A stretch of 64,000 bases of DNA, from NCBI GenBank assembly GCA_050874845.1, contig JBNMLM010000001.1, forward strand, positions 987-64,986, written 5' to 3'. Position 1 is the stretch's first letter, and the number at the start of each line of letters is the position of its first letter. Shown here piece by piece: positions 3,062 through 43,865 of this stretch. The position numbers and the translations under genes were made by a program. The DNA is from Eubacteriales bacterium. Its GTDB lineage: Bacteria; Bacillota; Clostridia; Lachnospirales; Lachnospiraceae. Under the pieces are notes generated by a model. That model was not told the DNA's origin. It worked only from the letters and a program-made list of their open reading frames with translations, and did not search any database.

Positions 3062-4287
3062 GTTTGTACCAAGATAGACAGATTAAAGGGTTCCTGCTAT
3101 TTTTGACTTTGTTTGCTCTGCTGTTTGTAGGTACAGCAACCGTTTTGACTATTTATCAGGTGAACGATGCGGAAGTCCTATGGCTCAAACATGATGAAGC
3201 GGTTTCATCCTCACTTTTGGAACAGGGTGTTCCGAAAGAAGTAGTTGCAGTTGCCTTTACGAACACAGACATCAGTGACGATGGTAGGTCATTATTAGCG
3301 GCTGCGGGTTTGGGAAAACAGTCAGAAAGCAGTATGCGGCCTTATTTCAATCAATTTCAGCGTTCCGCTTTCTGCACCATGCTATGCACTGTGCTATTTT
3401 TTCTCTTTGTGCTTGCCATAGGAATATTTATTTTTTTCTGGAAAAGGAAGCGATTGTATCAACAGGCCGACAAAATATTGCTAAATTACATCAACGGGGA
3501 TTACTCTTGTCATTTACCGCAGAATTATGAGGGGGCTATCTACCAAGTGTTTTCTTCGATAGAACAGCTTGCAACTATGCTCCAATCCAAAAATGAAACA
3601 GAACGTAAAGCAAAAGAGTTTTTGAAAGACACCATATCCGATATATCTCACCAGCTCAAAACGCCTCTGGCAGCCCTCACTATGTATCAGGAGATCATTG
3701 AAAGTGAGCCAGAAAATGCAGAAACGGTCAAACAGTTTGCGGCGAAGATGGGTATTTCTCTAAAGCGTATGGAGCAGTTAATCTTATCCATGTTGAAGAT
3801 AACCCGACTGGATACGGGAAACATCATTTTTGAGAAAAAAAGTTGCCGTGTGTCCGAGCTGATAGCTCATTCAGTCAATGACCTAACCACAAGGGCTAAA
3901 AGCGAAAGCAAGCAGATTCAGATAGATGGCGATGGTGAACAGCAGCTTATTTGTGACATGGAATGGACAGGTGAAGCGATTGGAAACATTGTAAAAAATG
4001 CACTGGATCACACGCAAGCTGGCGGTATTGTCCGTATTACATGGGAGCGCACTCCTGCTATGTTTCGGATTTTTATTTCTGATAATGGTAACGGCATAGT
4101 CCCGGAAGATATTTACCATATCTTTAAACGCTTTTATCGCAGCAGACATTCCCTTGATACACAAGGAATCGGGCTGGGGCTTCCCCTTGCCAAGTCCATT
4201 ATTGAGGGTCAAAACGGTGTTATCTCCGTACAAAGTGAAGTCGGAAAAGGTACGCTGTTTACACTATCTTTCCTTACGGATCTGTAA
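3058..4287 (+). CDS. Sensor histidine kinase with two TM helices flanking a ~70-aa external loop
   Basis: H-box SHQLKTPLAAL, N-box NALDHT, G-boxes DNGNGI and GIGLGLPLA. The ATG at 3058 overlaps the RR stop (ATGA). Confidence 0.9.
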   Translation: MSLYQDRQIKGFLLFLTLFALLFVGTATVLTIYQVNDAEVLWLKHDEAVSSSLLEQGVPKEVVAVAFTNTDISDDGRSLLAAAGLGKQSESSMRPYFNQFQRSAFCTMLCTVLFFLFVLAIGIFIFFWKRKRLYQQADKILLNYINGDYSCHLPQNYEGAIYQVFSSIEQLATMLQSKNETERKAKEFLKDTISDISHQLKTPLAALTMYQEIIESEPENAETVKQFAAKMGISLKRMEQLILSMLKITRLDTGNIIFEKKSCRVSELIAHSVNDLTTRAKSESKQIQIDGDGEQQLICDMEWTGEAIGNIVKNALDHTQAGGIVRITWERTPAMFRIFISDNGNGIVPEDIYHIFKRFYRSRHSLDTQGIGLGLPLAKSIIEGQNGVISVQSEVGKGTLFTLSFLTDL

Positions 4288-5047: not shown

Positions 5048-7391
5048 CCTTGTTCCCATATCTGTAAAGATCCACAGGAAGCAAAGCAGGATGTCCATTT
5101 TCTGCATTGTGCTGGCGGTATTTCTGGTTACTACAATTTTTGGCATGGCAGATATGTTCGTCCGCAGCCAGATTTTGCAGACCCAGCAGGAATATGGAAA
5201 CTGGCATATCGCCATCAAAAATATCAGCAACGAAGAAGCGTCAATTATCGCTTCACGCCCCGATGTTAAAGTATTTTCGCCGTATGGTGTACTTAATTAT
5301 CGTGGAGATTTAGGCTACACTTTAGGAGGAAAAAATGTAGCGATATGCGGTTGTGATAAAAGCTATATAACCGAAATCTGGGCTGGACAACTTGAAGATG
5401 GCGTTTTTCCACAGGCAAGTAATGAAGCGTTGGTGACTGAAAATGTAAAACAGATAATGGGTGTTGCGATTGGCGATTCCATTGCCGTCGAAACTCCTGA
5501 TGGTGATAAACTGAATTTTACCATATCTGGATTTATGAATAATACAGACTCGATCATGAGTGGCGACTCCTACGGCATTATTTTGAACATAGAGGATTAC
5601 TGCGCGATTTATCCGAATGTATCAGACGGGGAGCCGAATGATTACGGCATTATGTTTTTTACTCAATTTGCAAACACAAGAAATATACAAGGGAAAATTG
5701 CAGATTTGAAAGAACAATGCAATTTATCGAATGAACAAATATCTTCCAACAATAATCTGCTTGGCTTGCTTGGACAAAGCCGCGTCCCCTTTTTGTTACA
5801 AGTGTACTTGGCTGCGGCTGTATTGTTTGTATTGGTAATGTTAGCTGGCATTATGATGATTGCAAGCAGCCTAAATAGCAATGTGGCTCAGCGGACAGAG
5901 TTTTTCGGTCTTATGCGCTGTATCGGTGCAACGCCAAAACAGGTTATGCGCCTGGTACGGAAAGAGGCGCTTAGTTGGTGTCGTTTGGCGATCCCTGTGG
6001 GTATTTCCATCGGTGTAGTTGTCATTTGGGTCTTGTGTGCAGTTTTACGCTTCCTTGGCCCAGAATATTTCGAGGCTATGCCAACATTCGGTTTGAGCAT
6101 TCCGAGCATTTTGGCAGGAATCGTTGTGGGATTACTTACGGTTTTGTTAGCTGCTTATTCCCCGGCCAAAAAGGCGGCAAAGGTATCTCCTCTGGCAGCG
6201 GTTTCCGGTAACGCAAATACTTTGAAACCCGCCAGAAATGCCGCCAATACAAAGCTATTTAAGATTGATACTGCACTTGGGATTCATCATGCAAAAGCAA
6301 GCCGAAAAAACTTACTTTTGATGACAAGCTCATTTGCTCTTAGTATTATCCTTTTTTTATCGTTTTCCGTAACGGTCGAGTTTATGCAGCATACATTAAC
6401 GCCGCTTCATCCATGGACAGCAGATTTATCTATCATAAGCCCTGATAATTCTTGCGCCATTGACAAAACATTTTTAGAAGATTTGAAAGAAAATTCTATT
6501 GTGGATTTAGCGTATGGAAGAATGTTTGCCTACGAGGTTCCATCTGTAACAAATGGTATTGAAAAAAAGGTGGATTTGATCTCTTATGAGCAGCATCAAT
6601 TTGATTGGGCGAAAGACTATTTGTTAGAAGGTTCTCTTGAATCTGCACAAAACGATGTGGGAACTGGTTTAATTGTTTATGAGCAACAGAATACTATACA
6701 AATTGGTGATACTGTAACACTGAATATAAGCGGGCAAAAAAAAGAAATTCAAATCGTGGGAACACTATCTGACTGTCCATTTTATAGTGCTGCAGGTGTT
6801 GGAACAATTATCTGTTCAGAGGATACATTTAAGCAAATTACTAGTGAATCAAAGTACACGATTATTGATGTGCAGTTAACCAAAGAAGCAACCGATGAAG
6901 ATGTTTATGCTATCCATCAAATGGTGGATTCCACATTTACTTTCTCCGATGAACGTATGGGAAACAGCAGTACAATGGGAACATATTATTGTTTCTGGCT
7001 GTTCGTTTATGGATTTCTCGTTTTGATTGCATTGATTACAGTTTTTAACATAATAAACAGTATTGCTATGAGCGTCTCCTCAAGATCAAAGCAATATGGT
7101 TCTTTCCGCGCTATTGGGCTTAGTATAGGACAGCTTAGGAAAATGATAGTTGCAGAAGCCTTTACTTATACCATAATCGGCGGTATAGTTGGCACCATTT
7201 TGGGACTGTTAAGCAACAAGGTATTGTTCGAAATGTTGATCAGTTATAAATGGGGTGATACTTGGACAATTCCTTTGAAAGAATTGAGTATTATTCTTCT
7301 GATTGTTGTATTATCTGCGATTGTGGCGGTGTACGGTCCGATTAAGAGAATACACAATATGTCCATTGTTGACACAATCAGCGCACAGTGA
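5031..7391 (+). CDS. ABC transporter permease with two FtsX-type modules and two large external domains
   Basis: An N-terminal TM, a ~230-aa external domain and a TM bundle, then a second external domain and a second TM bundle. The start overlaps the ATPase gene. Confidence 0.85.
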   Translation: MKHYLDLVPISVKIHRKQSRMSIFCIVLAVFLVTTIFGMADMFVRSQILQTQQEYGNWHIAIKNISNEEASIIASRPDVKVFSPYGVLNYRGDLGYTLGGKNVAICGCDKSYITEIWAGQLEDGVFPQASNEALVTENVKQIMGVAIGDSIAVETPDGDKLNFTISGFMNNTDSIMSGDSYGIILNIEDYCAIYPNVSDGEPNDYGIMFFTQFANTRNIQGKIADLKEQCNLSNEQISSNNNLLGLLGQSRVPFLLQVYLAAAVLFVLVMLAGIMMIASSLNSNVAQRTEFFGLMRCIGATPKQVMRLVRKEALSWCRLAIPVGISIGVVVIWVLCAVLRFLGPEYFEAMPTFGLSIPSILAGIVVGLLTVLLAAYSPAKKAAKVSPLAAVSGNANTLKPARNAANTKLFKIDTALGIHHAKASRKNLLLMTSSFALSIILFLSFSVTVEFMQHTLTPLHPWTADLSIISPDNSCAIDKTFLEDLKENSIVDLAYGRMFAYEVPSVTNGIEKKVDLISYEQHQFDWAKDYLLEGSLESAQNDVGTGLIVYEQQNTIQIGDTVTLNISGQKKEIQIVGTLSDCPFYSAAGVGTIICSEDTFKQITSESKYTIIDVQLTKEATDEDVYAIHQMVDSTFTFSDERMGNSSTMGTYYCFWLFVYGFLVLIALITVFNIINSIAMSVSSRSKQYGSFRAIGLSIGQLRKMIVAEAFTYTIIGGIVGTILGLLSNKVLFEMLISYKWGDTWTIPLKELSIILLIVVLSAIVAVYGPIKRIHNMSIVDTISAQ

Positions 7392-7513: not shown

Positions 7514-8380
7514 ATGAAAAAAATTCTTTCCACCAGAGTATTGGTGAAGATTGGTGTATTAACAACGATACTGCTAGTTTTGATAATCTGTACTGTATGG
7601 GGAAATTCAGCATTGATGGTAAGTACAGTTAATATCTCCAGTGATCGCATACCATCTGCCTTTTCTAATTTTCAGATTGCACAAGTGTCCGACTTGCATA
7701 ATGCTGAATTTGGAGACAGCAATACAGAATTGATAGAATTGCTGTCTGAACACGAACCGGATATTATTGTTATAACTGGAGATTTAATCGATGCTGGACA
7801 TACAGACATTGAGATTGCGTTTGATTTTGTAAAAAAAGCTGTTCAAATAGCTCCTGTCTACTTTGTAACTGGAAACCACGAAGCTAACTTCTCACATTAT
7901 GATCAATTCAAAACAGGGCTTGAAGCGTCTGGCGTAACTGTTCTTGAAGATGAAGCAATACAGTTAGTGCATAACAACGAAATGATTACCCTTATCGGGC
8001 TTTCTGATCCTGACTTTACGATTAAGGGCGATATGTTTAATGAAGTACCAGCCATGGTCAACACAAAATTGAATAGCCTCATTGATGACGAAAACAGTTA
8101 CACTATACTGCTATCACATCGGCCAGAGTTATTTGAAACCTATGTATGCTGTGGTGTTGATTTGGTTTTATGTGGTCATGCACACGGAGGGCAGTTTCGA
8201 TTGCCTTTTATTGGGGGGCTTGTTGCCCCCAATCAAGGGCTGTTTCCTAAATATGATTCCGGTCTTTATACAGACGGAAAGACAAATATGGTTGTTAGCC
8301 GCGGCCTTGGAAATAGTATTATTCCATTCCGATTTAATAATCGTCCAGAGGTTGTATTAGTAGAACTTAACACCGAATAA
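7514..8380 (+). CDS. Membrane-anchored metallophosphoesterase (calcineurin-like, YkuE-type)
   Basis: Motifs SDLHN, GDLID, GNHE and GHAHGG, plus an N-terminal TM helix. Confidence 0.85.
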   Translation: MKKILSTRVLVKIGVLTTILLVLIICTVWGNSALMVSTVNISSDRIPSAFSNFQIAQVSDLHNAEFGDSNTELIELLSEHEPDIIVITGDLIDAGHTDIEIAFDFVKKAVQIAPVYFVTGNHEANFSHYDQFKTGLEASGVTVLEDEAIQLVHNNEMITLIGLSDPDFTIKGDMFNEVPAMVNTKLNSLIDDENSYTILLSHRPELFETYVCCGVDLVLCGHAHGGQFRLPFIGGLVAPNQGLFPKYDSGLYTDGKTNMVVSRGLGNSIIPFRFNNRPEVVLVELNTE

Positions 8381-8470
8381 CGATACTTCAACCGAATATT
8401 GAAATGATCTGCCGCACGACGGCAAAAGAAAAAAAGCCGTCGTAGAGCAGACAATTTGACACGCCCATTT

Positions 8471-8509
8471 GAAACGGCGGCTTTGATTTTCAGAGCCGCC
8501 GTTTCTTTG
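8471..8509 (+). terminator. Rho-independent terminator
   Basis: A 12-bp stem GAAACGGCGGCT/AGCCGCCGTTTC followed by TTT. Confidence 0.6.
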
Positions 8510-8706
8510 CGTCTACACAAACCAATGACGACTTGCAGGGACACGGTAGCCGATTGGAGGGTGATTTACCGTGTCTCGTTTGCTTTTTCAAAGCTCACAT
8601 GATCTACATCAGTTAAAAAAAGCCTTGCCCCTCCTCCGGGCAAGTATAACATTGCATCGGCATTATCGTTCCATGTAATTCAGTATAATAATGGCTGTTC
8701 TTGGCG

Positions 8707-8837
8707 CGCCAGTTTTCCCTCACGGAAATCTGGCGTTTTTTGTTGCCATTTTTTCGGAGATGATCCGGTTGTCTGCCAGTGTCGGTCTCCGCCTCCATTC
8801 GATTCACCCGTCAATCACCCGTGAATCGAAATGGAGG
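8707..8837 (+). promoter_or_regulatory. Structured leader of the sigma-like gene: a terminator-like hairpin followed by an RBS-sequestering hairpin
   Basis: Hairpin plus T6 at 8707-8741. A 16/17-nt inverted repeat (CCTCCATTCGATTCAC at 8792-8807, GTGAATCGAAATGGAGG at 8821-8837) has a 3' arm that contains the GGAGG of the gene starting at 8844. Confidence 0.55.
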
Positions 8838-34777: not shown

Positions 34778-34811
34778 AAAAACAGAGAAGCTATTCAGCT
34801 TCTCTGTTTTT
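34776..34811. terminator. Bidirectional terminator shared by the convergent permease and helicase ORFs
   Basis: A-run, stem ACAGAGAAGC/GCTTCTCTGT, then a T-run. The last codons and the stop of the minus-strand ORF lie inside the stem-loop. Confidence 0.7.
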
Positions 34812-37800
34812 GCTTCTTATCCAGTCATATTTCTTAATCAGTTCTTCGTCCGTGCTTCCGGTGAAGAAGTAGTAGTCAAAATACTGCGCTTCATCTAGGG
34901 CGATGAAGGCTCCGTAGGTCGGTATGCTGTTAAATAGCACCGTGAAGTCATGGCTTATCGCCAGACCGTAGCCTTTATCGGATATGACACATGGAGCTTT
35001 CAGCTTGCTTTTTCCGAACGAGATATATCTTGCAACGCGGTTGAGCGGAAGCTGGTCGCGGTTGCTTGCACCGAAGGCGTAGAGCTTCTGGGCGCTGTCG
35101 AAGTCGAAAAAGCATATGCTTCTGTTTTTGGTTGTCTCTAGGATATGTCCCGGCTGCTTTTCATTTAAGAGTACGTTTTTATCCTTGTCGCAGAAGCTTA
35201 TAAGTCCATTCTTTTTATCAATGCGAAGGTAGAGCGCTGAGGTGGCGAGCAGAACCGTGTCGGGAGTGTCCTTGAACTTCCATTTATCGGTGGTCTTTCT
35301 GTTCTCAATGCATTTCGCCTCGGGTATCTGAGCTCCTGCTCTGTGATAGCTGACACGTATCATTGAAGAAGCATAAGGGGTGAGCGTGAGCGTTGCATTG
35401 ATACTGTCTAGGATGAGGCTGTTACCCTCACGTCTTACTGCTCTGAACGGATATGCGGCCATGCGGTTCGGATTCTGCTTAAGCACATCCATCTTCGGCA
35501 CAGAGCCGAAGGAGTATTCCGACATGCACATAATCTTGTTGCTGTAGTCGACAGCCTTGCTCGGAGCTGCGGGAGGTGCGGTATATGGCATGGCAGGATA
35601 TGGTGATGCTTTTCTGGCTGCCGGAGCTTTATATTTTCCCGAAAGGTCTGTCATTTGGGACGCCGGGATGGTTCGCTTTGCGTCCGGTGTGACAGGGCTT
35701 GTTCTGGCTGTTGAATCATCAGCCTGTTCATCTTCTCCGGAAACGGCTGTGGCAGGCTGGATGGAGCTGAACGTCACTGTCTTTCGCACCCTGTTAGGCT
35801 GCATGTTCTCCGCGTCAAACACAGCATTTCTTACCGAATCGGGGATTGGCTCTGCAATCAATGGCGTGAGTGTTCCGGTGTGGTAGACGGCAAGCTCATG
35901 GAGCGCACGGGTTGCCGCTACATAGAGGAGCTTTACATTGGCGTCACACGCCGGGTATGCGTCAATGTCCGGATTCATAAGTATGCAGCAGTCGAATTCC
36001 AGTCCCTTGGTGTAGGTGATTGGAAGAACCATTGTCCCGGTATCAAATTCCATCGCGTCAAAGTCATTGACCTGAGTGTATTTTGCAAGCTCTTCGGCGG
36101 CTGCCCTTGAGGTATCAATATCAGGGCAGATTATCGCTATCGTCTCATAGCCGGCTTCCTTCCACGCATTTATTTTGGCGGCGGTATTTCTGATAAGCTC
36201 ATCGTTATCCGCAAAAGCCGCTATCTCCACGTCCTTGCCATGTCTTATAATAGGCTCGACAGGATAGATTGAGAAAGTACCGTGTCTTAAGATATCCGTT
36301 GCAAAGTGGGATATCTCAACAGTGTTGCGGTAGCTCTTACGCAGGAGATTGAAGCTGTCATATTCCCCGGTGAGGAAGTTGGCGGTGAGCTCAGTCCAGT
36401 CATTCAGTCCGTGTTCATAGTGAATATTCTGTGCAACGTCACCCATTATCGTGTAGGTACAGCCGCGCATGCAGTAGTGCAGGCTCATATATGCCATCAT
36501 TCCGAAGTCCTGTGCCTCATCTATGACAACATGGTGTGCCTCCTCAATAGGGTCATTTTCCTTGGTACGCTTGTAGATGTAGGCTAGGGCGGCGAGGTCG
36601 TATAAATCAGGAGACTTAGCGTCATAAGGGAACACGGTGCCGTATTTCTTCTCCTGAGATTTCAGAAAATCGGAGTATATGTCGTATGTGGAGTATTTCC
36701 ACTTCTTAGGTCCGAAGTACTGACGGTAGAAGCGCGTGAGTGCCTTCTTTTCTTCAGGTGAGTACTGGATTTCCTTTCCCATGAGTTCGTTCTCAAGGCG
36801 CGATAGTATGCGGTTGTTGAGGTGTTCTATCTTAAGCTGTGTCGATAGCTGCGGGTTCTCATTAAGGAACGCCATGATGGACTGCGATGTGAGCAGGGTG
36901 ACACACACGTCATGTTCGAGAAGCACATTCTCATTAGATTTGAGGATGACATCCCTTGTGTCGATGACATTTCTCTCAAAACTATTACAGAACGCCTCAA
37001 GCTCACGAAACCATGTGAGTGTTCCGCGCTTTAAGGAGGCAGGGTACACTGCGGACGGCATGACAAGCGGCGCAATATTCTGTGTAGCTCTGTCCCAGTC
37101 CTCATACAGAAGTCTCACAAAAAGCTCCTCCATCGTCATCTGGCGCACACCGTTTACGTCCAAATCGGGCAGGACGCTGGTAATGTAATTGAGGAGAATC
37201 TTGTTGCTTCCGACAATGTAAAAATCTGCCGGCTTAAAGTCCTTCTCATAGTTGTACAGGATATATGATATCCTGTGCATGGCGACAGTTGTCTTTCCGG
37301 AACCGGCAGCTCCCTGGACTATTATACTTTTGTAAGGGGACTGTCTTATAATATTATTCTGTTCCTTCTGGATTGTCGCAATAATCTCACCGAGAACAGC
37401 CTTCTTGTTCTGGGAGAGGTATCTGTTTAGAAGCTCATCGTTTGCGACAACGTCGCTGTCAAAAAAGGAAAGCAGGGTATCATCCTTAATTTCGTAGGTT
37501 CTCTTTTTCTTAAGGTCAATCACAAAATCACCTTCTCTTGGAACAGAGTAGGTGACTTCTCCGATGTGGCTTTCGTAGTATGAATTGGCGATAGGGGCAC
37601 GCCAATCGATGACCTCAAGGTGGGTTACATCGCGGGATATGCCGACCTTGCCTATATAGATGGTGTCATTGCTCTTGTGCTTATCATCGACAAAATCGAT
37701 TCTTCCGAAGAAAGGCTTCTGTCTTGCCTTTTCGGCTCGGGAGGCTTCATGCTGCGCACGCTCATACATTACCTGTATGTTGTCAATCATTGACAGAGCT

Positions 37801-37955
37801 TCGACATCCTTGGCGCCGTAGGTCTCAAGAAGAGTGTAGAGTTCATCAGACAGAGCTTTCTCTTCTTTTCTGTATTTTTCCAGATTTTCCTTGGTAAGAG
37901 CCAGCACTGCTGCAAAGTGACTTTGCTCAAAATTATTGTCATCGGGTTTAAACAT
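34791..37955 (-). CDS. helD: HelD-like SF1 helicase (RNAP-associated helicase IV class) fused in frame to a Pro/Ala-rich linker and a GH31 N-terminal beta-sandwich-like fragment
   Basis: The N-terminal HelD arm (FFGRIDF...VIDWRAPIANSYY), Walker A GAAGSGKTT and VVIDEAQD. The C-terminal 210 aa align block by block to the N-domain of GH31 enzymes. AAGGAG RBS before the ATG at 37955. Confidence 0.8.
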   Translation of the reverse strand: MFKPDDNNFEQSHFAAVLALTKENLEKYRKEEKALSDELYTLLETYGAKDVEALSMIDNIQVMYERAQHEASRAEKARQKPFFGRIDFVDDKHKSNDTIYIGKVGISRDVTHLEVIDWRAPIANSYYESHIGEVTYSVPREGDFVIDLKKKRTYEIKDDTLLSFFDSDVVANDELLNRYLSQNKKAVLGEIIATIQKEQNNIIRQSPYKSIIVQGAAGSGKTTVAMHRISYILYNYEKDFKPADFYIVGSNKILLNYITSVLPDLDVNGVRQMTMEELFVRLLYEDWDRATQNIAPLVMPSAVYPASLKRGTLTWFRELEAFCNSFERNVIDTRDVILKSNENVLLEHDVCVTLLTSQSIMAFLNENPQLSTQLKIEHLNNRILSRLENELMGKEIQYSPEEKKALTRFYRQYFGPKKWKYSTYDIYSDFLKSQEKKYGTVFPYDAKSPDLYDLAALAYIYKRTKENDPIEEAHHVVIDEAQDFGMMAYMSLHYCMRGCTYTIMGDVAQNIHYEHGLNDWTELTANFLTGEYDSFNLLRKSYRNTVEISHFATDILRHGTFSIYPVEPIIRHGKDVEIAAFADNDELIRNTAAKINAWKEAGYETIAIICPDIDTSRAAAEELAKYTQVNDFDAMEFDTGTMVLPITYTKGLEFDCCILMNPDIDAYPACDANVKLLYVAATRALHELAVYHTGTLTPLIAEPIPDSVRNAVFDAENMQPNRVRKTVTFSSIQPATAVSGEDEQADDSTARTSPVTPDAKRTIPASQMTDLSGKYKAPAARKASPYPAMPYTAPPAAPSKAVDYSNKIMCMSEYSFGSVPKMDVLKQNPNRMAAYPFRAVRREGNSLILDSINATLTLTPYASSMIRVSYHRAGAQIPEAKCIENRKTTDKWKFKDTPDTVLLATSALYLRIDKKNGLISFCDKDKNVLLNEKQPGHILETTKNRSICFFDFDSAQKLYAFGASNRDQLPLNRVARYISFGKSKLKAPCVISDKGYGLAISHDFTVLFNSIPTYGAFIALDEAQYFDYYFFTGSTDEELIKKYDWIRSKNREAE

Positions 37956-38091
37956 GGTAAACTCCTTGTCTTTATACATACTGCCGTAAAATACAACGTG
38001 TTGGGAAGGAGTACTTCCCAACACATATATTACTTTATCATTTTAGATGAATATTTTCAAGGCATTTGCAGGAACAGTATTGACAAAACAA

Positions 38092-39021
38092 TTAAAATTC
38101 AGAGGATGAATCTTCATAGAACAGTTTCACCACGATATTCTGGCTGAAATCTCCGAATGAGGCGCCGAACAACGTGAAGCCGCCGCAGTTAGGTGTATCT
38201 GCCGGAACGGATATGGTGAAATTGATTATCGAGTCATAGTTAAGTGCAAGGTCATTGATGGTTACTGATGACAGCTTGGCGGTTCCGTCCATAAATGTAC
38301 CGGAATGATTGATAACTAATGTTTTTAACAGACCGTACTGGTTGAGCCCGTCCGGCCACCAGTTAGGGCACAGCATACCACGTCTGTTGCCGAAGTCACC
38401 GGGGCTTATCCATTTCCCGAGAGCTTTCCCATTGATGTCAAAATAGATATCACTTGGATAATTGTCATTGTGCTCAGGACACTCAGAGCTTATCTCAAAG
38501 GAAATCTGTATTTCGGACAGGGTCTGGCCGAGCTTTAAACGGTTGGGAAGATTATATGTCACATAACCATATCCGACCCATAATATATCAGCCTTAAAAC
38601 GCTCAGGATATGAAAAAACCTTGGGATTATCGAGGTCGCCGATAAGGTTTCCGGAGGTGGACAGACCACAGGTAGGATGAACATCGTAACTGATATAGTG
38701 TCCTATATCTATCTCATCGGTATAGCATTTGATAGAACCGGCATTTGGAACCATGTCTATGATAAGTCGTTCATAGCGTGGACGTACTATTTTCATAATA
38801 CCCCTCTTACCGGAGGTCACCTGAACGGAGACAAGACCGGCAGCCTCAAGCTTGCCGACATGCATAGATATAGCACTGTTGGTAAGACCAAGAGTTTCCG
38901 CAAGGTCATTCATGCTCAGATGATCATTTTGATAGATAAGTTTCATAATCTGAAGTCTCATAGGGGTGCTGAGTGCCTTAAAGACTTCTTCGGCTTCGTT
39001 TAGTGATTTAATATAGTACAT
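38092..39021 (-). CDS. ArsR-family HTH regulator with a ~210-aa uncharacterised C-terminal domain
   Basis: N-terminal ArsR wHTH (FKALSTPMRLQIMKLIY...MNDLAETLGLTNSAISMHVGKLEAAGLV), divergent from the GH51 gene. Confidence 0.8.
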   Translation of the reverse strand: MYYIKSLNEAEEVFKALSTPMRLQIMKLIYQNDHLSMNDLAETLGLTNSAISMHVGKLEAAGLVSVQVTSGKRGIMKIVRPRYERLIIDMVPNAGSIKCYTDEIDIGHYISYDVHPTCGLSTSGNLIGDLDNPKVFSYPERFKADILWVGYGYVTYNLPNRLKLGQTLSEIQISFEISSECPEHNDNYPSDIYFDINGKALGKWISPGDFGNRRGMLCPNWWPDGLNQYGLLKTLVINHSGTFMDGTAKLSSVTINDLALNYDSIINFTISVPADTPNCGGFTLFGASFGDFSQNIVVKLFYEDSSSEF

Positions 39022-39367: not shown

Positions 39368-40873
39368 ATGAGCAAGTTGTACATAAACCCTAAGAACAAA
39401 AAGGGTCATATCAATCCGGAGATTCAGGGACATTTTTCGGAGCATTTGGGAAGATGTATTTACGAGGGAATTTTTGTCGGAAAGGATTCTTCCATTCCTA
39501 ATGTGAACGGAATGAGAACAGACGTTGTGGAGGCATTAAAGGACATACAGATTCCTGTTCTCAGATGGCCGGGCGGCTGCTTTGCAGACGAGTACCACTG
39601 GAAGGACGGCATAGGACCTGTTGAGGGCAGAAAGAAGATGATAAACACCCACTGGGGCGGTGTTGTAGAGGACAACAGCTTCGGAACACATGAGTTCATG
39701 GAGCTTTGCAGACAGCTTGGCTGTAAGACATACGTCAACGGCAATGTCGGAAGCGGAACGGTTCAGGAGATGAGCGAATGGGTTGAGTACATGACCTTTG
39801 AGGGTGTATCGCCAATGAGTGATTTGAGAAAGAGGAACGGTTCTGAGAAGCCTTGGACAGTCGACTACTTTGGAGTAGGAAATGAGAACTGGGGCTGCGG
39901 CGGAAACATGACACCTGAGTATTACGGAAATCTCTATAGAAGATACCAGACTTATGTAAGAAACTATCATCCGGATAAGCCTATCTTCAAGGTTGCATGC
40001 GGAGCGAATGTTGACGATTACAACTGGACAGACAAGGTGATGGATACCTGCTTTAAGGCACCGGAGTTCCTTCACGGCTTTATGGATGGCATATCACTTC
40101 ATTACTATACACATCCGGGTGGATGGGATCACAAGGGAAGCGCAACGGATTTCGATGATAAGATGTGGTATCAGACACTTAATAAGACACTCTATATGGA
40201 TGAGCTTATAAAGAATCACGAAGCAATCATGAACAAGTATGACAAGCAGCACAAGGTTGGCATGATTGTGGATGAGTGGGGAACATGGTTCGACTGTGAG
40301 CCGGGAACCAATCCGGGATTCTTGTATCAGCAGAATACAATAAGAGATGCACTCGTTGCAGGAATCAACTTAAACATCTTCAACAAGCACTGTGACAGAG
40401 TTAAGATGGCGAACATTGCACAGATGGTAAATGTTCTTCAGGCAGTTCTCCTCACAGAGGGAGACAAGATGATAAAGACTCCTACATATCATGTATTCTA
40501 TATGTATAAGCACCATCAGGATGCCGAGCTTTTAGACAGCTTCGTTGAGACAGAGCAGATAGGTCTTGAGGAGCAGAACATGGTACCTAACCTTACAGAG
40601 TCGGTATCACTCGGCAAGGACGGAAAGATTCATATTACAATGACCAATCTTTCCATAGACAAGGACTACGAGATTGACGGCTGTGTAGCTGATACCGAGA
40701 TTGCTTCTGCAAGCGGCGAGATTGTCGGAGGAGAGATTCACCTTCACAATACATTCGATAAGCCTGAGGAGGTAACTGTAAGACCATTTAATGATATAGA
40801 GGTAAACGGCAACAGAATTAAGTTCTCAATTCCGGCAAGCAGTGTACTTCATCTGGAATTGAACATCAGATAA
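39368..40873 (+). CDS. abfA: Alpha-L-arabinofuranosidase, GH51
   Basis: GH51 blocks [29 protein letters not shown] (acid/base Glu) and IVDEWGTW (nucleophile Glu). About 500 aa with no signal peptide. Confidence 0.9.
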
Positions 40874-40889: not shown

Positions 40890-43865
40890 ATGATTCGAAA
40901 AGGTATTAAGAGAATCACATCACTTGCACTTATTACTTCCATGATAGCCTGCACATTCCCATACGCGTCCGTGCCTGTATATGCACAGACGCAGATGGCT
41001 GAGCAGCCTGTGGCAGTTGTGACAACAACTCAGGACGCAGCGCAGGAGAGCAGACTTACAACCAATTATTCCACGGTGAGCAAGGGCTATAAGGAAGCGG
41101 TATATACAGGTGATGATATTGTCTATAAGATAAGCGAGGCTGTCGCTAAGGCGGACAGAACCTTTCTTACCAATGATAATTATGAATATGTTAATGACGT
41201 ACTTGCTGTGAAGGCAGGTGACACCGTGACACTCACTATTGATGTTCCGGTATCCGGAAGATATGTTATGAGCTTCGATTATCTTTCCTACGATGAGTCG
41301 ATTCTTCCTGTTGAGATGGGAATGAAGATAGACGGAAGCTATCCTTTTTATGAAGCAAGAAGCATGAAGTTCGAGACGACATGGGTTTCGGATGGAGTGG
41401 ATGTCGACAGATACGGCAACGAGATAGTCTCTCTTCCTGATAAGCTTATCAGATGGGAACACAAGGAGGTAATGGATGCCAGCTACAGGTATTCAGACCC
41501 ATTGCTGGTTGAGCTTACAGCGGGCGTTCACGAGCTTGAACTGAATATTCAGGAGGGAACGCTTCTTCTTGGAAATATAAGTCTTGAGGCTCCGAGCGGT
41601 GTCGCTGAGTATGCAGGTTCAACAAAGGCTGAGGGCAACGCGCTCATAACAATAGAGGCTGAGGACTTCTATCAGAGGAATGATTCATCAATCCATGCGA
41701 TAGGTGAGTACGGTTCAAGCCTTTCACCATTGTCTACAACAACCACGGTTCTCAATATCATTGATGAGGATTCCTTCAATGAGGCAGGACAGACGGTAAG
41801 CTATAAGTTCCATGTGGACAATGCGGGCTATTATTACATAGGAATGAACTACCGCCAGTCTGAGAAAAATGATTTTCCTGTCTTTGTCGACTGGAAAATA
41901 GACGGTGAGATTCCTAACAGCGCATTTAAGTCATATCAGGTTGAGGCGGCTAACAAGTTCAAGACGGTCACGCTCACAGATGACAATGCTGATAAGCTTA
42001 GCGTATACCTTGAACCGGGTGACCACACAATCTCACTTACGATAAGCGCAGACAATCTCAGATATGCGCTTGAAGCTGTAGATGAGATTATGAGCGGAAT
42101 AAGCGACCTGTCACTTGAGGTAACCAAGGTCGCCGGAACCAACAAGGATAAGTACAGGGACCTTAAGCTCACAAGATATATTCCGGATGTTCAGGACAGA
42201 CTGCTTGGATGGGTTGATGAGCTCTACAGTCTTGCAGAGCAGGCACAGCCTTATGTCAACGCTAAGAGCCCGGATAAGGTGGCAGCGTTCTCATATCTGC
42301 TTATAGCAGCCAATCAGCTTAAGAGCCTTGCAGAGAAACCGAATGAGCTGGTCTACAGAGTTGATGAGCTGTCGACGAGCGTCAATTCAATAAATACACA
42401 GATTGCGAATTTCGTGGATCTTATAAATGATAATGACCTTTCGATTGACAGAATCTACATATATCAGGAGGGAGCCAAGCTCCCTAAGGGACAGAATATT
42501 TTCCAGTCGATAGGCACATCATTAAAGAGATTCGGCTATTCGTTCATGGGACAGTCGTACTCAGCGAGCAACACCGATGAGTCACACATACAGGTGTGGG
42601 TGAACAGACCGAGAACCTACGTTGAGATCATGCAGAAGATGATTGACGAGAAGTTCACGCCGGAGACCGGAATAGAGGTTGATTTATCAATCATGACGGA
42701 TGCACAGAAGCTTATCCTTTCCAATGCTTCAGGTGATACCCCGGACATAGCGACCGGAATCAACTATTCAATACCGTTTGACCTTGCGATAAGAGGTTCG
42801 CTTGTTGATTTATCGAAGTTTGATAATTACAAGGAAGTGTTCGGAAGATACAGCGAGGGACTTTTAGTTCCGTCCGTTGTGGGTGACGGACTTTACTCAC
42901 TGCCTGAGACGATGAATTTCTATGTAATGTTTTACAGGACAGACATTTTAAGCAAGTTAGGACTTTCGGTTCCAAACACGATGGATGAACTCATTGCGAT
43001 GCTGCCTGATCTGCAGATGAGGGGACTCAATGTGTACTATCCGACAGCGGCTATGCTTGTGATGAGAAACTTCCATGGAACAACACCGATTATTTATCAG
43101 ATGGACGGAGCACTCTATGGTGACACTGCACTTGACATATTGGTTGACAGTGAAGCCACGGTTGAAGGTTTTACGGAGCTTACAGAGTTATTCACACTTT
43201 ATGACCTTCCTGTTGATGTACCTAACTTCTACCAGCACTTCAGAAACGGAGATTTGCCTATAGGAATAGCTGATTTCAATTCATACAACCTGATACTTAA
43301 TGCCGCACCTGAGATTGCAAACTCATGGAGCATTGCACTTGTGCCGGGTATTGAGGATGAGGAGACCGGTGAAGTGAAGAGGTATATGTCCGGAGGTGCC
43401 GAGAGTACTGTAATGTTCTCATCGGATGATGAGAGAGAGCAGAAGGCATGGCAGTTCATGGAGTGGTGGTCAAGGGCAGATATTCAGGCAGAATTCGGAC
43501 AGCGGCTTCAGATTCTGTACGGAGACGAGTATATATGGCCTACAGCCAACCTTGAAGCGTTCGAGATGCTTCCTTATCCGACATCGGATAAAGATGTAAT
43601 ACTCACACAGGCTCAGTACATCTTAGAGACACCAAGACTTCTTGGAAGCTACATGATGGAGCGAGAGCTGAGCAACGCATTCAATGATGTGGTAGTAAAC
43701 GGTGATACGGTTCGTTCAAGAATTGATGAGGTAGCCAAGACAGTATTAAGAGAGACAGAGAGAAAGCTTGAAGAATTCGGCTATATCGATTCGGACGGAA
43801 ATGTGCTTAAGGAGTACGAAGTACCTTCCGTTGAAAAGGTGCTTGAGATTCTTAACAGAGAATAA
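40890..43865 (+). CDS. Giant (991 aa) extracellular solute-binding lipoprotein: N-terminal CBM-like beta-sandwich repeats + helical region + C-terminal family-1 SBP domain
   Basis: Signal/lipobox (SMIAC), CBM6/35-like segments (ITIEAEDFYQRND...) and a C-terminal SBP_bac_1-like region. It is followed by two CUT1 permeases. Confidence 0.75.
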   Translation: MIRKGIKRITSLALITSMIACTFPYASVPVYAQTQMAEQPVAVVTTTQDAAQESRLTTNYSTVSKGYKEAVYTGDDIVYKISEAVAKADRTFLTNDNYEYVNDVLAVKAGDTVTLTIDVPVSGRYVMSFDYLSYDESILPVEMGMKIDGSYPFYEARSMKFETTWVSDGVDVDRYGNEIVSLPDKLIRWEHKEVMDASYRYSDPLLVELTAGVHELELNIQEGTLLLGNISLEAPSGVAEYAGSTKAEGNALITIEAEDFYQRNDSSIHAIGEYGSSLSPLSTTTTVLNIIDEDSFNEAGQTVSYKFHVDNAGYYYIGMNYRQSEKNDFPVFVDWKIDGEIPNSAFKSYQVEAANKFKTVTLTDDNADKLSVYLEPGDHTISLTISADNLRYALEAVDEIMSGISDLSLEVTKVAGTNKDKYRDLKLTRYIPDVQDRLLGWVDELYSLAEQAQPYVNAKSPDKVAAFSYLLIAANQLKSLAEKPNELVYRVDELSTSVNSINTQIANFVDLINDNDLSIDRIYIYQEGAKLPKGQNIFQSIGTSLKRFGYSFMGQSYSASNTDESHIQVWVNRPRTYVEIMQKMIDEKFTPETGIEVDLSIMTDAQKLILSNASGDTPDIATGINYSIPFDLAIRGSLVDLSKFDNYKEVFGRYSEGLLVPSVVGDGLYSLPETMNFYVMFYRTDILSKLGLSVPNTMDELIAMLPDLQMRGLNVYYPTAAMLVMRNFHGTTPIIYQMDGALYGDTALDILVDSEATVEGFTELTELFTLYDLPVDVPNFYQHFRNGDLPIGIADFNSYNLILNAAPEIANSWSIALVPGIEDEETGEVKRYMSGGAESTVMFSSDDEREQKAWQFMEWWSRADIQAEFGQRLQILYGDEYIWPTANLEAFEMLPYPTSDKDVILTQAQYILETPRLLGSYMMERELSNAFNDVVVNGDTVRSRIDEVAKTVLRETERKLEEFGYIDSDGNVLKEYEVPSVEKVLEILNRE

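Follow-up and report, generated by a model that had tools for sequence, protein, structure and literature searches.

A HelD-like protein of Lachnospiraceae carries a conserved beta-sandwich of the GH31 N-terminal type at its C-terminus

The window analysed here is a stretch of 64,000 nucleotides from a genome of the Lachnospiraceae (contig JBNMLM010000001.1). On its reverse strand lies a HelD-like gene within a reading frame listed from 38024 down to 34791 (Table 1). A first-pass annotation had described it as an ORF of 1054 aa running in frame from a HelD-like part into the N-domain of a GH31 enzyme, and both the frame and the start codon agree with that description. The true start is the ATG at 37955, with the sequence AAGGAG before it. 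The GTG at 38024 was considered as an alternative start and ruled out: homologues begin with MF(K/Q/Y)P(D/T)D, the AAGGAG stands before the ATG, and the putative 23-codon extension contains a hairpin. The helD leader also appears to hold a pair of candidate promoters, one sense and one antisense. The analysis confirmed that the protein consists of three parts, namely a class I HelD-like core, a low-complexity linker, and a C-terminal GH31-type beta-sandwich (hereafter the C-domain). Its cluster at 90% identity contains 977 sequences; those of them that were read are 1028–1054 aa long, mostly 1052 or 1054.

Table 1. Features of the HelD-like gene and its terminator (window coordinates).
Feature	Coordinates	Strand	Details or basis
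HelD-like gene with C-terminal GH31-N-type domain, complete, 1054 aa	34791..37955	-	ATG 37955-37953, stop TAG 34793-34791
Ribosome-binding site AAGGAG	37962..37967	-	6 nt upstream of ATG 37955; seen in the sequence itself
HelD core, residues 1 to ~708	35832..37955	-	Alignment to B. subtilis HelD, Pfam, motifs
Low-complexity, Ala/Ser/Pro/Thr-rich linker, ~residues 709-805	35541..35831	-	Composition, variable length
C-terminal domain, ~residues 806-1054, GH31 N-terminal-type beta-sandwich and short connecting helix	34794..35540	-	Profiles, fold, alignment
Bidirectional intrinsic-terminator hairpin, 15 bp	34778..34811	.	Common to helD and the convergent FtsX/MacB-type permease gene (stop 34777)

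HelD, a factor characterised in recent years, recycles RNA polymerase and guards it against rifampicin. To our knowledge, structural and mechanistic work on HelD has all been carried out on Bacillus and mycobacterial proteins, which are without the C-terminal tail described here. The core of the window protein aligns with B. subtilis HelD (6wvk_H) over residues 50–299 and 534–764 of 774 (E 7.7e-71), the first stretch taking in the N-terminal domain and 1A, the second 2A; the match to M. smegmatis HelD has an E-value of 1.4e-28. Between the aligned blocks, about 180 residues (281–464), where B. subtilis HelD has its clamp-opening arm, gave no alignment to 6wvk_H. Pfam places UvrD-helicase, AAA_19, UvrD_C, and UvrD_C_2 above their cut-offs, the 2A domain being of the UvrD_C type, and the translation contains the Walker A (GAAGSGKT) and Walker B (VVIDEAQD) motifs of an SF1 ATPase. 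The best NCBIfam match is HelD_BACSU (E 3.9e-98); with 329.3 bits it stays below the equivalog cut-off of 419 bits, so the protein is a homologue but not an "equivalog" by the NCBI criterion. The N-terminal secondary-channel-arm region, read from the translation, carries the DWRAP motif of class I HelD within LEVIDWRAPIANSYYE; DWRAP is the motif that defines HelD (PMC8655204). On these sequence grounds, what had been called a helicase is better read as HelD, the RNA-polymerase recycling ATPase.

B. subtilis HelD terminates about 10 residues past window residue 702. In the window protein, the helicase part ends near ...LAVYHTGTLTPLIAE, and the linker then begins. The Pro/Ala/Ser-rich linker of the first-pass annotation is thus present, though the length of about 80 aa given there is too short: by composition (A 15%, S 12%, P 11%, T 8%), it spans about 100–110 residues. 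Both its length and its sequence vary, with 43–156 aa in 14 relatives. Its dN/dS is 0.21, against 0.03–0.07 in the flanking domains, and its pLDDT was below 50 in a first AlphaFold model built from five close sequences.

The kinship of the C-domain with the N-terminal beta-sandwich of GH31 enzymes, first recognised from the translation alone, is confirmed by five independent tests. First, the Pfam family Gal_mutarotas_2 (PF13802) matches the C-domain with an E-value of 1.6e-5, at 25.7 bits and slightly below the 27-bit cut-off. Second, a C-domain profile run against PDB sequences matched only GH31 enzymes, at their N-termini (best 5jou, E 4.6e-4). Third, the profile run against 1.84 billion representatives matched full GH31 enzymes in their N-domain (E 1e-13 to 1e-10), and the TIM barrels of these enzymes were checked by Pfam (PF01055, E 1e-55 to 1e-93). 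Fourth, a model of the C-domain was searched with Foldseek against the PDB. The AlphaFold model used was built from a 14-sequence alignment (pLDDT 87.9, pTM 0.88); the earlier one, from only five close sequences, had a pLDDT of 56.6 and was set aside. All of the top 50 matches were GH31 enzymes, with E-values down to 2.4e-11 and TM-scores of 0.65–0.74 over about 240 columns, and E. coli YicI (1we5, 1xsi) was among them. Identity to these GH31 structures is only about 15–19%. Fifth, a multiple alignment showed the C-domain to be collinear with GH31 N-termini.

This multiple alignment also agrees with the earlier observation that the similarity stops at the boundary of the GH31 barrel. HelD-type proteins end at a helix of the form DYYF..G....Y..L, whereas GH31 enzymes go on with (t)GkA.mlPkWafG, where the barrel starts, and true GH31 matches extend 536–728 residues further. 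The ORF in the window stops at the helix preceding barrel strand 1, and Pfam found no catalytic barrel (PF01055) in the protein, which cannot therefore be a GH31 glycosidase. The C-domain was shown to be a complete, non-catalytic beta-sandwich of the GH31 N-terminal type. The residues invariant across HelD-type C-domains (IDK.xG, LL.E, YG, and DYYF) are also conserved in GH31 and thus look structural; no new functional motif was found in the alignment of HelD-type C-domains with GH31.

The gene terminates within a structured region. As previously noted, the last codons lie in the stem of a bidirectional terminator: the right arm of the hairpin encodes KNREA, and the stop codon of helD falls where the loop meets the left arm. 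The folding energies on the two strands are -20.2 and -21.9 kcal/mol (z -5.3 and -6.2). Two of the related loci (L008 and L010) show compensatory base-pair changes in the hairpin that are synonymous in the coding arm.

The distribution of this architecture was followed through 38 confirmed loci in species-representative genomes, found by a search seeded with an alignment of closer relatives. They are mostly from Lachnospiraceae, and 35 of the 38 are of the HelD type. Cultured carriers include Kineothrix alysoides KNHs209 (NZ_JPNB01000001.1, about 482089–485172; L024, 3640–6723) and Lachnospiraceae bacterium G11 (L040). Each of the 33 HelD-type loci not cut by a contig end reads as one uninterrupted frame (33/33) of 1016–1084 aa, with the domain match ending 0–22 aa from the stop codon, and a strict Walker A pattern (G[AVS]AGSGKT) occurs at about 220–250 in 27 of them. 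At 50% identity, at least 14 clusters carry the fusion: 14 long representatives (971–1232 aa) match at their extreme C-terminus, and all nine that were scanned have the UvrD-type domain order. The best 120 homologues of the helicase part, 96–56% identical to it, are likewise all long, most of them about 1015–1160 aa.

These data bear directly on the reading given at first pass, namely that this genome recently lost the 3' portion of a GH31 gene and the stop codon of helD through a deletion, leaving a functionless fragment in frame. Homology that ends precisely between N-domain and barrel, an ORF that terminates in the terminator of the neighbouring gene, and the proximity of glycan-utilisation genes would all suit such a remnant. 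However, the same fusion recurs in all complete loci, in the 50% clusters, and in the 120 nearest homologues, and nowhere among the complete loci or these homologues does a separate helD lie next to an intact GH31 gene, the arrangement that a comparison of orthologous loci had been proposed to look for. Nor is there any sign of relaxed selection, as the dN/dS of the C-domain is 0.034 (helicase 0.068) in comparison with L001 and 0.06 in comparison with L006. The C-domain is under purifying selection as strong as that on the helicase. A word-based search found no GH31 relative, which together with the low identity to GH31 structures indicates that the capture was ancient. Of the three split loci, all on metagenome contigs, L003 has a scaffold N-gap, L004 shifts frame where the linker begins, and L007 has one in-frame TAG at a Tyr codon of the domain. 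The deletion reading is refuted on the very ground that the first-pass annotation had named, a full-length fusion shared by many genomes and held under purifying selection, and a recent remnant is extremely improbable. The domain may occasionally be lost in strains, as in the two metagenome contigs with the TAG (L007) and the frameshift (L004).

An equally improbable explanation is that an assembly error or frameshift in the linker region merged an adjacent helD and a small beta-sandwich gene. It can invoke public gene calls, which include free-standing "proteins" of 266 aa (P0001, 19 members) that start at a Met at the end of the linker. However, the frame is continuous for 1079 aa on the longest contig with such a call (L001), while a second locus (L002) begins at a contig end and that of L003 contains a run of N. 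In the latter, a close relative, the sequence just upstream of the internal ATG showed no resemblance to a Shine-Dalgarno site. The members read from the 977-sequence cluster are of full length, and independent assemblies across the family have continuous frames. Each apparently free-standing protein or split locus that was checked could be explained by a contig end, an N-gap, a frameshift, a TAG, or an incomplete gene call where the frame itself is continuous. The indels and assembly faults of metagenome contigs are located at the linker or adjoining it, and gene callers and scaffolders often break this HelD gene in or beside its low-complexity stretch.

The architecture is almost certainly real and selected, and it was shown to be old and maintained by purifying selection. 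It may well have been born by fusion or deletion in a distant ancestor, since some C-domains of the clade are no more than about 20% identical. Very probably, to judge from its sequence and distribution, the gene is a genuine conserved variant of class I HelD that is typical of Lachnospiraceae. An ORF resembling a "gene fusion scar" can thus be a bona fide architecture.

What the C-domain does is approached here through its charge. The C-domain of the window protein has a pI of 9.1, and the median across 33 species is 8.97 (range 7.5–9.5). The helicase body has a pI of about 5.3, and for GH31 N-domains the value is below 7 in 10 of 11. In the alignment with GH31, conserved Lys or Arg residues were gained in six columns and conserved Asp or Glu residues lost in four columns of the shared N-domain, and the acidic residues of the GH31 motifs GLG..EEG and YG.lfDn have disappeared. 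This basic charge is only suggestive, as a hint of a contact with RNA polymerase or nucleic acid.

The first-pass annotation had offered, as its alternative, a genuine helicase with a recruited sugar-binding-like domain. The genuine recruited domain is borne out by conservation and selection; the sugar-binding part is not. A ligand-sensing C-domain would have retained binding of a carbohydrate or another small ligand and would make the activity or localisation of HelD depend on sugar or glycan status. By its fold, the C-domain falls in the galactose-mutarotase-like supersandwich class, named "glycoside hydrolase-type carbohydrate-binding" in Pfam, and its carriers are glycan-degrading gut Lachnospiraceae. 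However, the main role of the GH31 N-domain is to buttress the barrel, and it is not known as an autonomous sugar binder. The loss of the conserved acidic motif residues also speaks against ligand sensing, and the positive charge that the domain has consistently gained points in another direction.

Genomic context does not help this reading either. The window locus lies near glycan-utilisation genes, encoding a GH51-type arabinofuranosidase and a sugar-binding protein, but no conserved carbohydrate-gene neighbourhood exists across divergent loci. When 188 flanking ORFs from 33 loci were clustered, no conserved specific neighbour was found. The largest flanking "family" was a mixture of GGDEF, histidine-kinase, and PAS signalling proteins linked through common domains, and synteny with the FtsX, HTH, and arabinofuranosidase genes is limited to close relatives. 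An operon link to carbohydrate use was rejected on these grounds, and ligand sensing as a whole appears quite unlikely.

Alternatively, the beta-sandwich could play a structural part without any external ligand, by mediating dimerisation of HelD or by docking on its torso for auto-regulation. GH31 N-domains take part in the oligomer interfaces of YicI-type hexamers, and an acidic helicase body with a basic domain would suit an intramolecular contact. The B. subtilis RNAP-delta-HelD complex also forms dimers (PMC7749165). By contrast, a long, variable, and disordered linker favours a tether of wide reach over fixed docking, and oligomerisation or docking seems rather unlikely.

Our preferred guess is that the C-domain provides a third contact, either with nucleic acid or with an acidic surface on RNA polymerase or on a partner. 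In this scenario, an ancestor would have acquired the 5' portion of a GH31 gene, severed exactly where the N-domain meets the barrel. The captured domain would then have been remodelled, turning basic and losing the acidic residues of the two motifs, and would now be a non-catalytic binding module, tethered to the end of HelD. That it tethers HelD to a polyanion or to RNA polymerase is a tentative proposal drawn from composition and alignment. The broader idea, that a glycosidase N-domain was recast as an accessory domain giving HelD a tethered contact with DNA, RNA, or a surface or subunit of RNA polymerase, is possible to the same modest degree. If true, the extra contact would alter the recognition or recycling of stalled polymerases, in manner or in place, in a dominant gut group, and a domain of a carbohydrate enzyme would have been clearly re-used in transcription. 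In a more exotic version, the domain would make recycling answer to a sugar-derived ligand. Any contact of the domain with polymerase, nucleic acid, or ligand would be a new element in the HelD mechanism.

The architecture appears unannotated and undescribed. NCBI labels two named relatives "AAA family ATPase", whole-protein Pfam searches of the relatives did not report the C-domain, and the Pfam score is sub-threshold in most members, with only 4 of 14 isolated C-domains reaching an E-value of 0.01 or below. The HelD phylogeny paper does not mention the C-terminal domain under the terms searched (PMC8655204), and the word "mutarotase" is absent from the HelD literature retrieved. Searches for HelD with a C-terminal extension, "mutarotase", or "Gal_mutarotas_2" returned nothing, which, given incomplete coverage, is an absence of evidence only. 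A large clade from the abundant gut Lachnospiraceae has an extra, strongly conserved HelD domain that is invisible to standard annotation.

Three known systems offer themselves for comparison. With class I HelD of B. subtilis (YvgS/HelD; PDB 6WVK, 6ZCA), the window protein has in common the N-terminal KPYFGRIDF...DWRAPIA..YYE, the SF1 Walker A and B motifs, and a 2A domain with LLYVAATRALHEL. It differs in about 350 extra residues past the end of B. subtilis HelD, comprising the linker and the GH31-N-type domain, and in a middle region, where the clamp-opening arm is expected, that is too divergent to align. With GH31 enzymes (E. coli YicI 1WE5/1XSI, K. aerogenes YicI 8T7Z, FjDex31A 6JR6; PF13802), the C-domain shares the N-terminal beta-sandwich fold and the collinear motifs L+I.P....+RV.F, l.+.+DK.tGa+sF.d..g..LL.E, ..P.+.S.kGYG+, and DYYF..G.....+..Y. 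However, the protein has neither the (beta/alpha)8 barrel nor the catalytic Asp residues or C-terminal domains of GH31, the domain is placed at the C-terminus of an ATPase, it is basic whereas GH31 N-domains are acidic, and it is missing an insertion found in many of them. The third system is the RNA-polymerase-binding Tudor-like domain of PcrA/UvrD, attached C-terminally through a flexible linker and the known precedent for the contact proposed here. Fold and size are unrelated (a supersandwich of about 250 aa versus a Tudor domain of about 70 aa) and there is no homology. The analogy is a functional one only and lies in the layout, in which an SF1 motor that works on transcription complexes is joined through a disordered linker to a small all-beta domain at its C-terminal end.

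The HelD-like gene (helD) lies in an open frame that runs from 38024 to 34791 on the minus strand and comprises 1077 codons when counted from a GTG. The start codon actually used by helD is ATG 37955, with AAGGAG 6 nt upstream. Homologous proteins start with MF(K/Q/Y)P(D/T)D, and among 15 members listed from its 90%-identity cluster (977 member sequences), eight are 1054 aa long, six 1052 aa and one 1028 aa. Together, this ribosome-binding motif, the homologous N-termini and the cluster lengths indicate a product of 1054 aa, the length given in the first-pass annotation.

Residues 1 to ~708 are classified as HelD, more precisely as a class I type homologue by motif and alignment, with the best NCBIfam model, HelD_BACSU (E 3.9e-98), scoring 329 bits, under its 419-bit equivalog cut-off. 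The translation carries Walker A (GAAGSGKT), Walker B (VIDEAQD) and DWRAP, the motif that defines HelD according to a HelD phylogeny paper (PMC8655204). Among PDB sequences, the top match is B. subtilis HelD (6wvk_H, E 7.7e-71), with its residues 50–299 and 534–764 of 774 aligned, followed by M. smegmatis HelD (E 1.4e-28). Window residue 702 aligns ~10 residues before the end of B. subtilis HelD, so the last ~350 residues of the window protein are extra.

This extra part begins with a low-complexity linker (residues ~709–805; A 15%, S 12%, P 11%, T 8%), which is predicted to be disordered (pLDDT < 50) and varies from 43 to 156 disordered residues among relatives. Homology links the last ~250 residues (the C-domain) to the beta-sandwich at the N-terminus of glycoside hydrolase family 31 (GH31) enzymes. 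Pfam PF13802 (Gal_mutarotas_2) scores 25.7 bits on it (E 1.6e-5), with a cut-off of 27, and the whole domain is missed by Pfam in most members. A profile built from five C-domain sequences matched solely GH31 N-termini in the PDB sequence set. Run with HMMER against the full set of 1.84 billion representatives, it reached complete GH31 enzymes (E 1e-13 to 1e-10), always within their N-terminal 30–280 residues; their identity was confirmed by the TIM barrel, C-domain and DUF5110 found by Pfam. The AlphaFold model, computed from a 14-sequence alignment of diverse family members, is confident and all-beta with a C-terminal helix (pLDDT 87.9, pTM 0.88), and GH31 accounts for all 50 top Foldseek matches in the PDB, E. 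coli YicI among them (E down to 2.4e-11, query TM 0.65–0.74, ~235–250 columns). When 14 HelD-type domains and eight GH31 N-termini are aligned with MAFFT, the two groups stay collinear between the first strands and 'DYYF..G....+..Y..L'. Every HelD-type protein ends within a few residues of this DYYF helix, past which the GH31 enzymes run on into '(t)GkA.mlPkWafGy.qS', the first barrel strand. The C-domain is thus an entire GH31 N-domain that ends precisely on the domain boundary, which bears out both the similarity to YicI and the place where it had been said to stop. None of the catalytic machinery of GH31 is found in the C-domain; a test for the barrel that defines the family showed it to be absent, so the window protein is not a GH31 enzyme.

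From this truncated similarity, the first-pass annotation had favored a deletion fusing helD to the remnant of a GH31 gene, the alternative being a genuine helicase with a recruited sugar-binding-like domain. The comparative evidence is one-sided. When one genome per GTDB species was scanned with a sequence pattern, 38 loci were confirmed; three are true GH31 genes from Acidobacteriota and Verrucomicrobiota (536–728 codons beyond the match), and two are interrupted by contig ends. Each of the other 33 has a single uninterrupted frame of 1016–1084 codons with the match 0–22 codons from the stop, and 27 of them carry a strict Walker A (G[AVS]AGSGKT) at ~220–250. Their hosts are Lachnospiraceae or unclassified Clostridia ('Eubacterium sp.', Blautia, Lacrimispora, Acetatifactor), and cultured isolates among the carriers include Kineothrix alysoides KNHs209 and Lachnospiraceae bacterium G11. 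At least 14 representatives from 50%-identity clustering (971–1232 aa) match the C-domain profile at their extreme C-terminus; HelD N-terminal motifs open all 14, and the domain order is of UvrD type in all nine scanned. When the helicase part alone was searched, the best 120 homologues (96% to 56% identity) were all long, mostly ~1015–1160 aa, the shorter ones being cut by contig ends or gene calls. Within the clade, identity to the window protein is 42–62% for the helicase part and 20–44% for the C-domain, so the fusion is old. There is no recent GH31 donor either, and a word-based search found no GH31 protein with even short words common to the C-domain. Against L001, a public locus at 92% amino acid identity, the Nei-Gojobori dN/dS is 0.034 in the C-domain, 0.068 in the helicase part and 0.21 in the linker; against a further relative, L006, the C-domain gives 0.06. 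The deletion scar is refuted by these complete loci and low dN/dS values, and a domain recruited onto a genuine helicase is supported by a full-length fusion kept across genomes under purifying selection.

Public data also contain 'split' versions, which are artefacts or one-off lesions. In L003 a scaffold gap of Ns falls at the linker end (~3140–3150), the L002 sequence starts at a contig end, the linker start of L004 carries a frameshift (~338), and L007 has one in-frame TAG (6674–6676) where relatives have Tyr TAC or TAT. In L001, a 266-aa 'gene' (8001–8801) was called on only part of a frame that runs unbroken for 1079 codons. Breaks of the kinds seen in L001, L003, L004 and L007 generate spurious 'stand-alone' C-domain proteins in databases. 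Disruption of helD within or beside the low-complexity linker is frequent in public metagenome assemblies and gene calls.

At its 3' end, helD converges on an FtsX/MacB-type permease gene, and its stop codon does fall, as first annotated, within the terminator hairpin of this neighbour: the right arm encodes K-N-R-E-A, and the TAG sits at the boundary of loop and left arm. Predicted folding energies are -20.2 kcal/mol on the gene strand (z -5.3) and -21.9 on the other (z -6.2). The closest species-level relatives preserve the hairpin by compensatory changes, which turn two A-U pairs into G-C in L010 and L001, and one U-A pair into C-G in L008; they are synonymous on the coding arm (AGA GAA GCT to AGG GAG GCC), so constraint acts on the hairpin as well as on the protein end. 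The hairpin is confined to the close lineage (window, L008, L010/L001). The comparison of gene ends covered L012, L013, L014, L016 and L006; relatives with a C-domain ~82% identical have no such hairpin predicted, and their convergent helD and ftsX-like genes lie a few to ~15 nt apart. A stop codon within a shared terminator is ordinary and no sign of damage.

Features of the helD region
Feature	Coordinates	Strand	Remarks
HelD-like gene (helD)	34791-37955	-	
Hairpin	34778-34811	both	15 bp, 4-nt loop, A-run and T-run on flanks
FtsX/MacB-type permease, 941 aa	31952-34777	+	weak DUF4407 and FPP matches in insertion
Antisense promoter-like site	37936-37963	+	TTGTCA, 16 nt, TAAACT, with TG; overlaps helD start codon
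Terminator-like leader hairpin	38026-37996		13 bp
Sense promoter-like site	38060-38032	-	TTGAAA, 17 nt, TAAAGT, with TG
309-aa protein	38092-39021	-	ArsR/MarR-type winged-helix domain, residues ~17-74 only
GH51-type alpha-L-arabinofuranosidase gene	39368-40873		adjoins 991-aa SBP gene
991-aa protein	40890-43865	+	SBP_bac_1/8 solute-binding domain, residues ~579-871 only

In the neighbourhood of helD, a long coiled-coil-like insertion (residues ~252–425) in the permease separates the first transmembrane region from the MacB periplasmic core domain. The winged-helix gene lies directly upstream on the same strand, a synteny seen in close relatives only, and the ~230 C-terminal residues of its product have no Pfam match, nor do the first ~570 residues of the 991-aa protein after its signal-like N-terminus. 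The helD leader holds a sense promoter-like site immediately followed by a terminator-like hairpin, and a convergent antisense promoter-like site. This pair resembles the convergent PhelD/Panti-helD promoters to which helD of B. subtilis owes its rifampicin inducibility (PMC12802891). However, each site matches only 9/12 consensus positions, and 12 such sites occur in the region for 6.2 expected. The arrangement is kept only in the near-identical relatives L008 and L010, and is absent in L009 and L013. No conserved neighbourhood was found in the flanks of helD loci as a functional hint.

The HelD plus GH31-N architecture is real, widespread and apparently undescribed, class I HelD itself being already known. 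A HelD review (PMC10719064) mentions no C-terminal extension, additional domain or fusion, and the phylogeny paper (PMC8655204), searched for such terms, mentions no C-terminal extension or glycosidase-like domain. The term 'mutarotase' was not found in the HelD literature searched, nor was a paper pairing 'Gal_mutarotas_2' with a helicase, and NCBI names both named relatives looked up 'AAA family ATPase'. The architecture is a clear-cut case in which a transcription factor of abundant gut bacteria has co-opted a domain, and it can be tested directly in cultured carriers.

After its HelD core, the protein has a flexible tether and then a beta-sandwich that is folded, under selection and non-catalytic. 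Judging from the families involved, the core would work in the manner of class I HelD, with the N-terminal arm entering the RNAP secondary channel, a second arm opening the clamp, and ATP-dependent cycling releasing nucleic acids, a mechanism based on published B. subtilis structures (PDB 6WVK and 6ZCA). For the C-domain, electrostatics is the sole positive clue. Across 33 species its median pI is 8.97 (range 7.5–9.5, net charge ~+5), that of the helicase body being ~5.3, and in 10 of 11 GH31 N-domains the pI is under 7. Compared with GH31, conserved K/R is gained in six alignment columns, and GH31-conserved acidic residues are lost in four shared N-domain columns, including the GLG..EEG and YG.lfDn motifs. 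Combined with the disordered linker, this charge shift tentatively suggests a tethered module that may bind a polyanion or acidic protein surface (DNA, RNA or part of RNAP). A role in oligomerisation or intramolecular docking seems improbable, and sensing of a ligand or sugar by the domain is quite unlikely. Residues invariant in HelD-type domains are also conserved in GH31 and hence look structural. For the tethered binding module, an analogy, and only that, is offered by PcrA and UvrD, which bind RNAP through a C-terminal Tudor domain tethered by a linker, a layout that the window HelD resembles.
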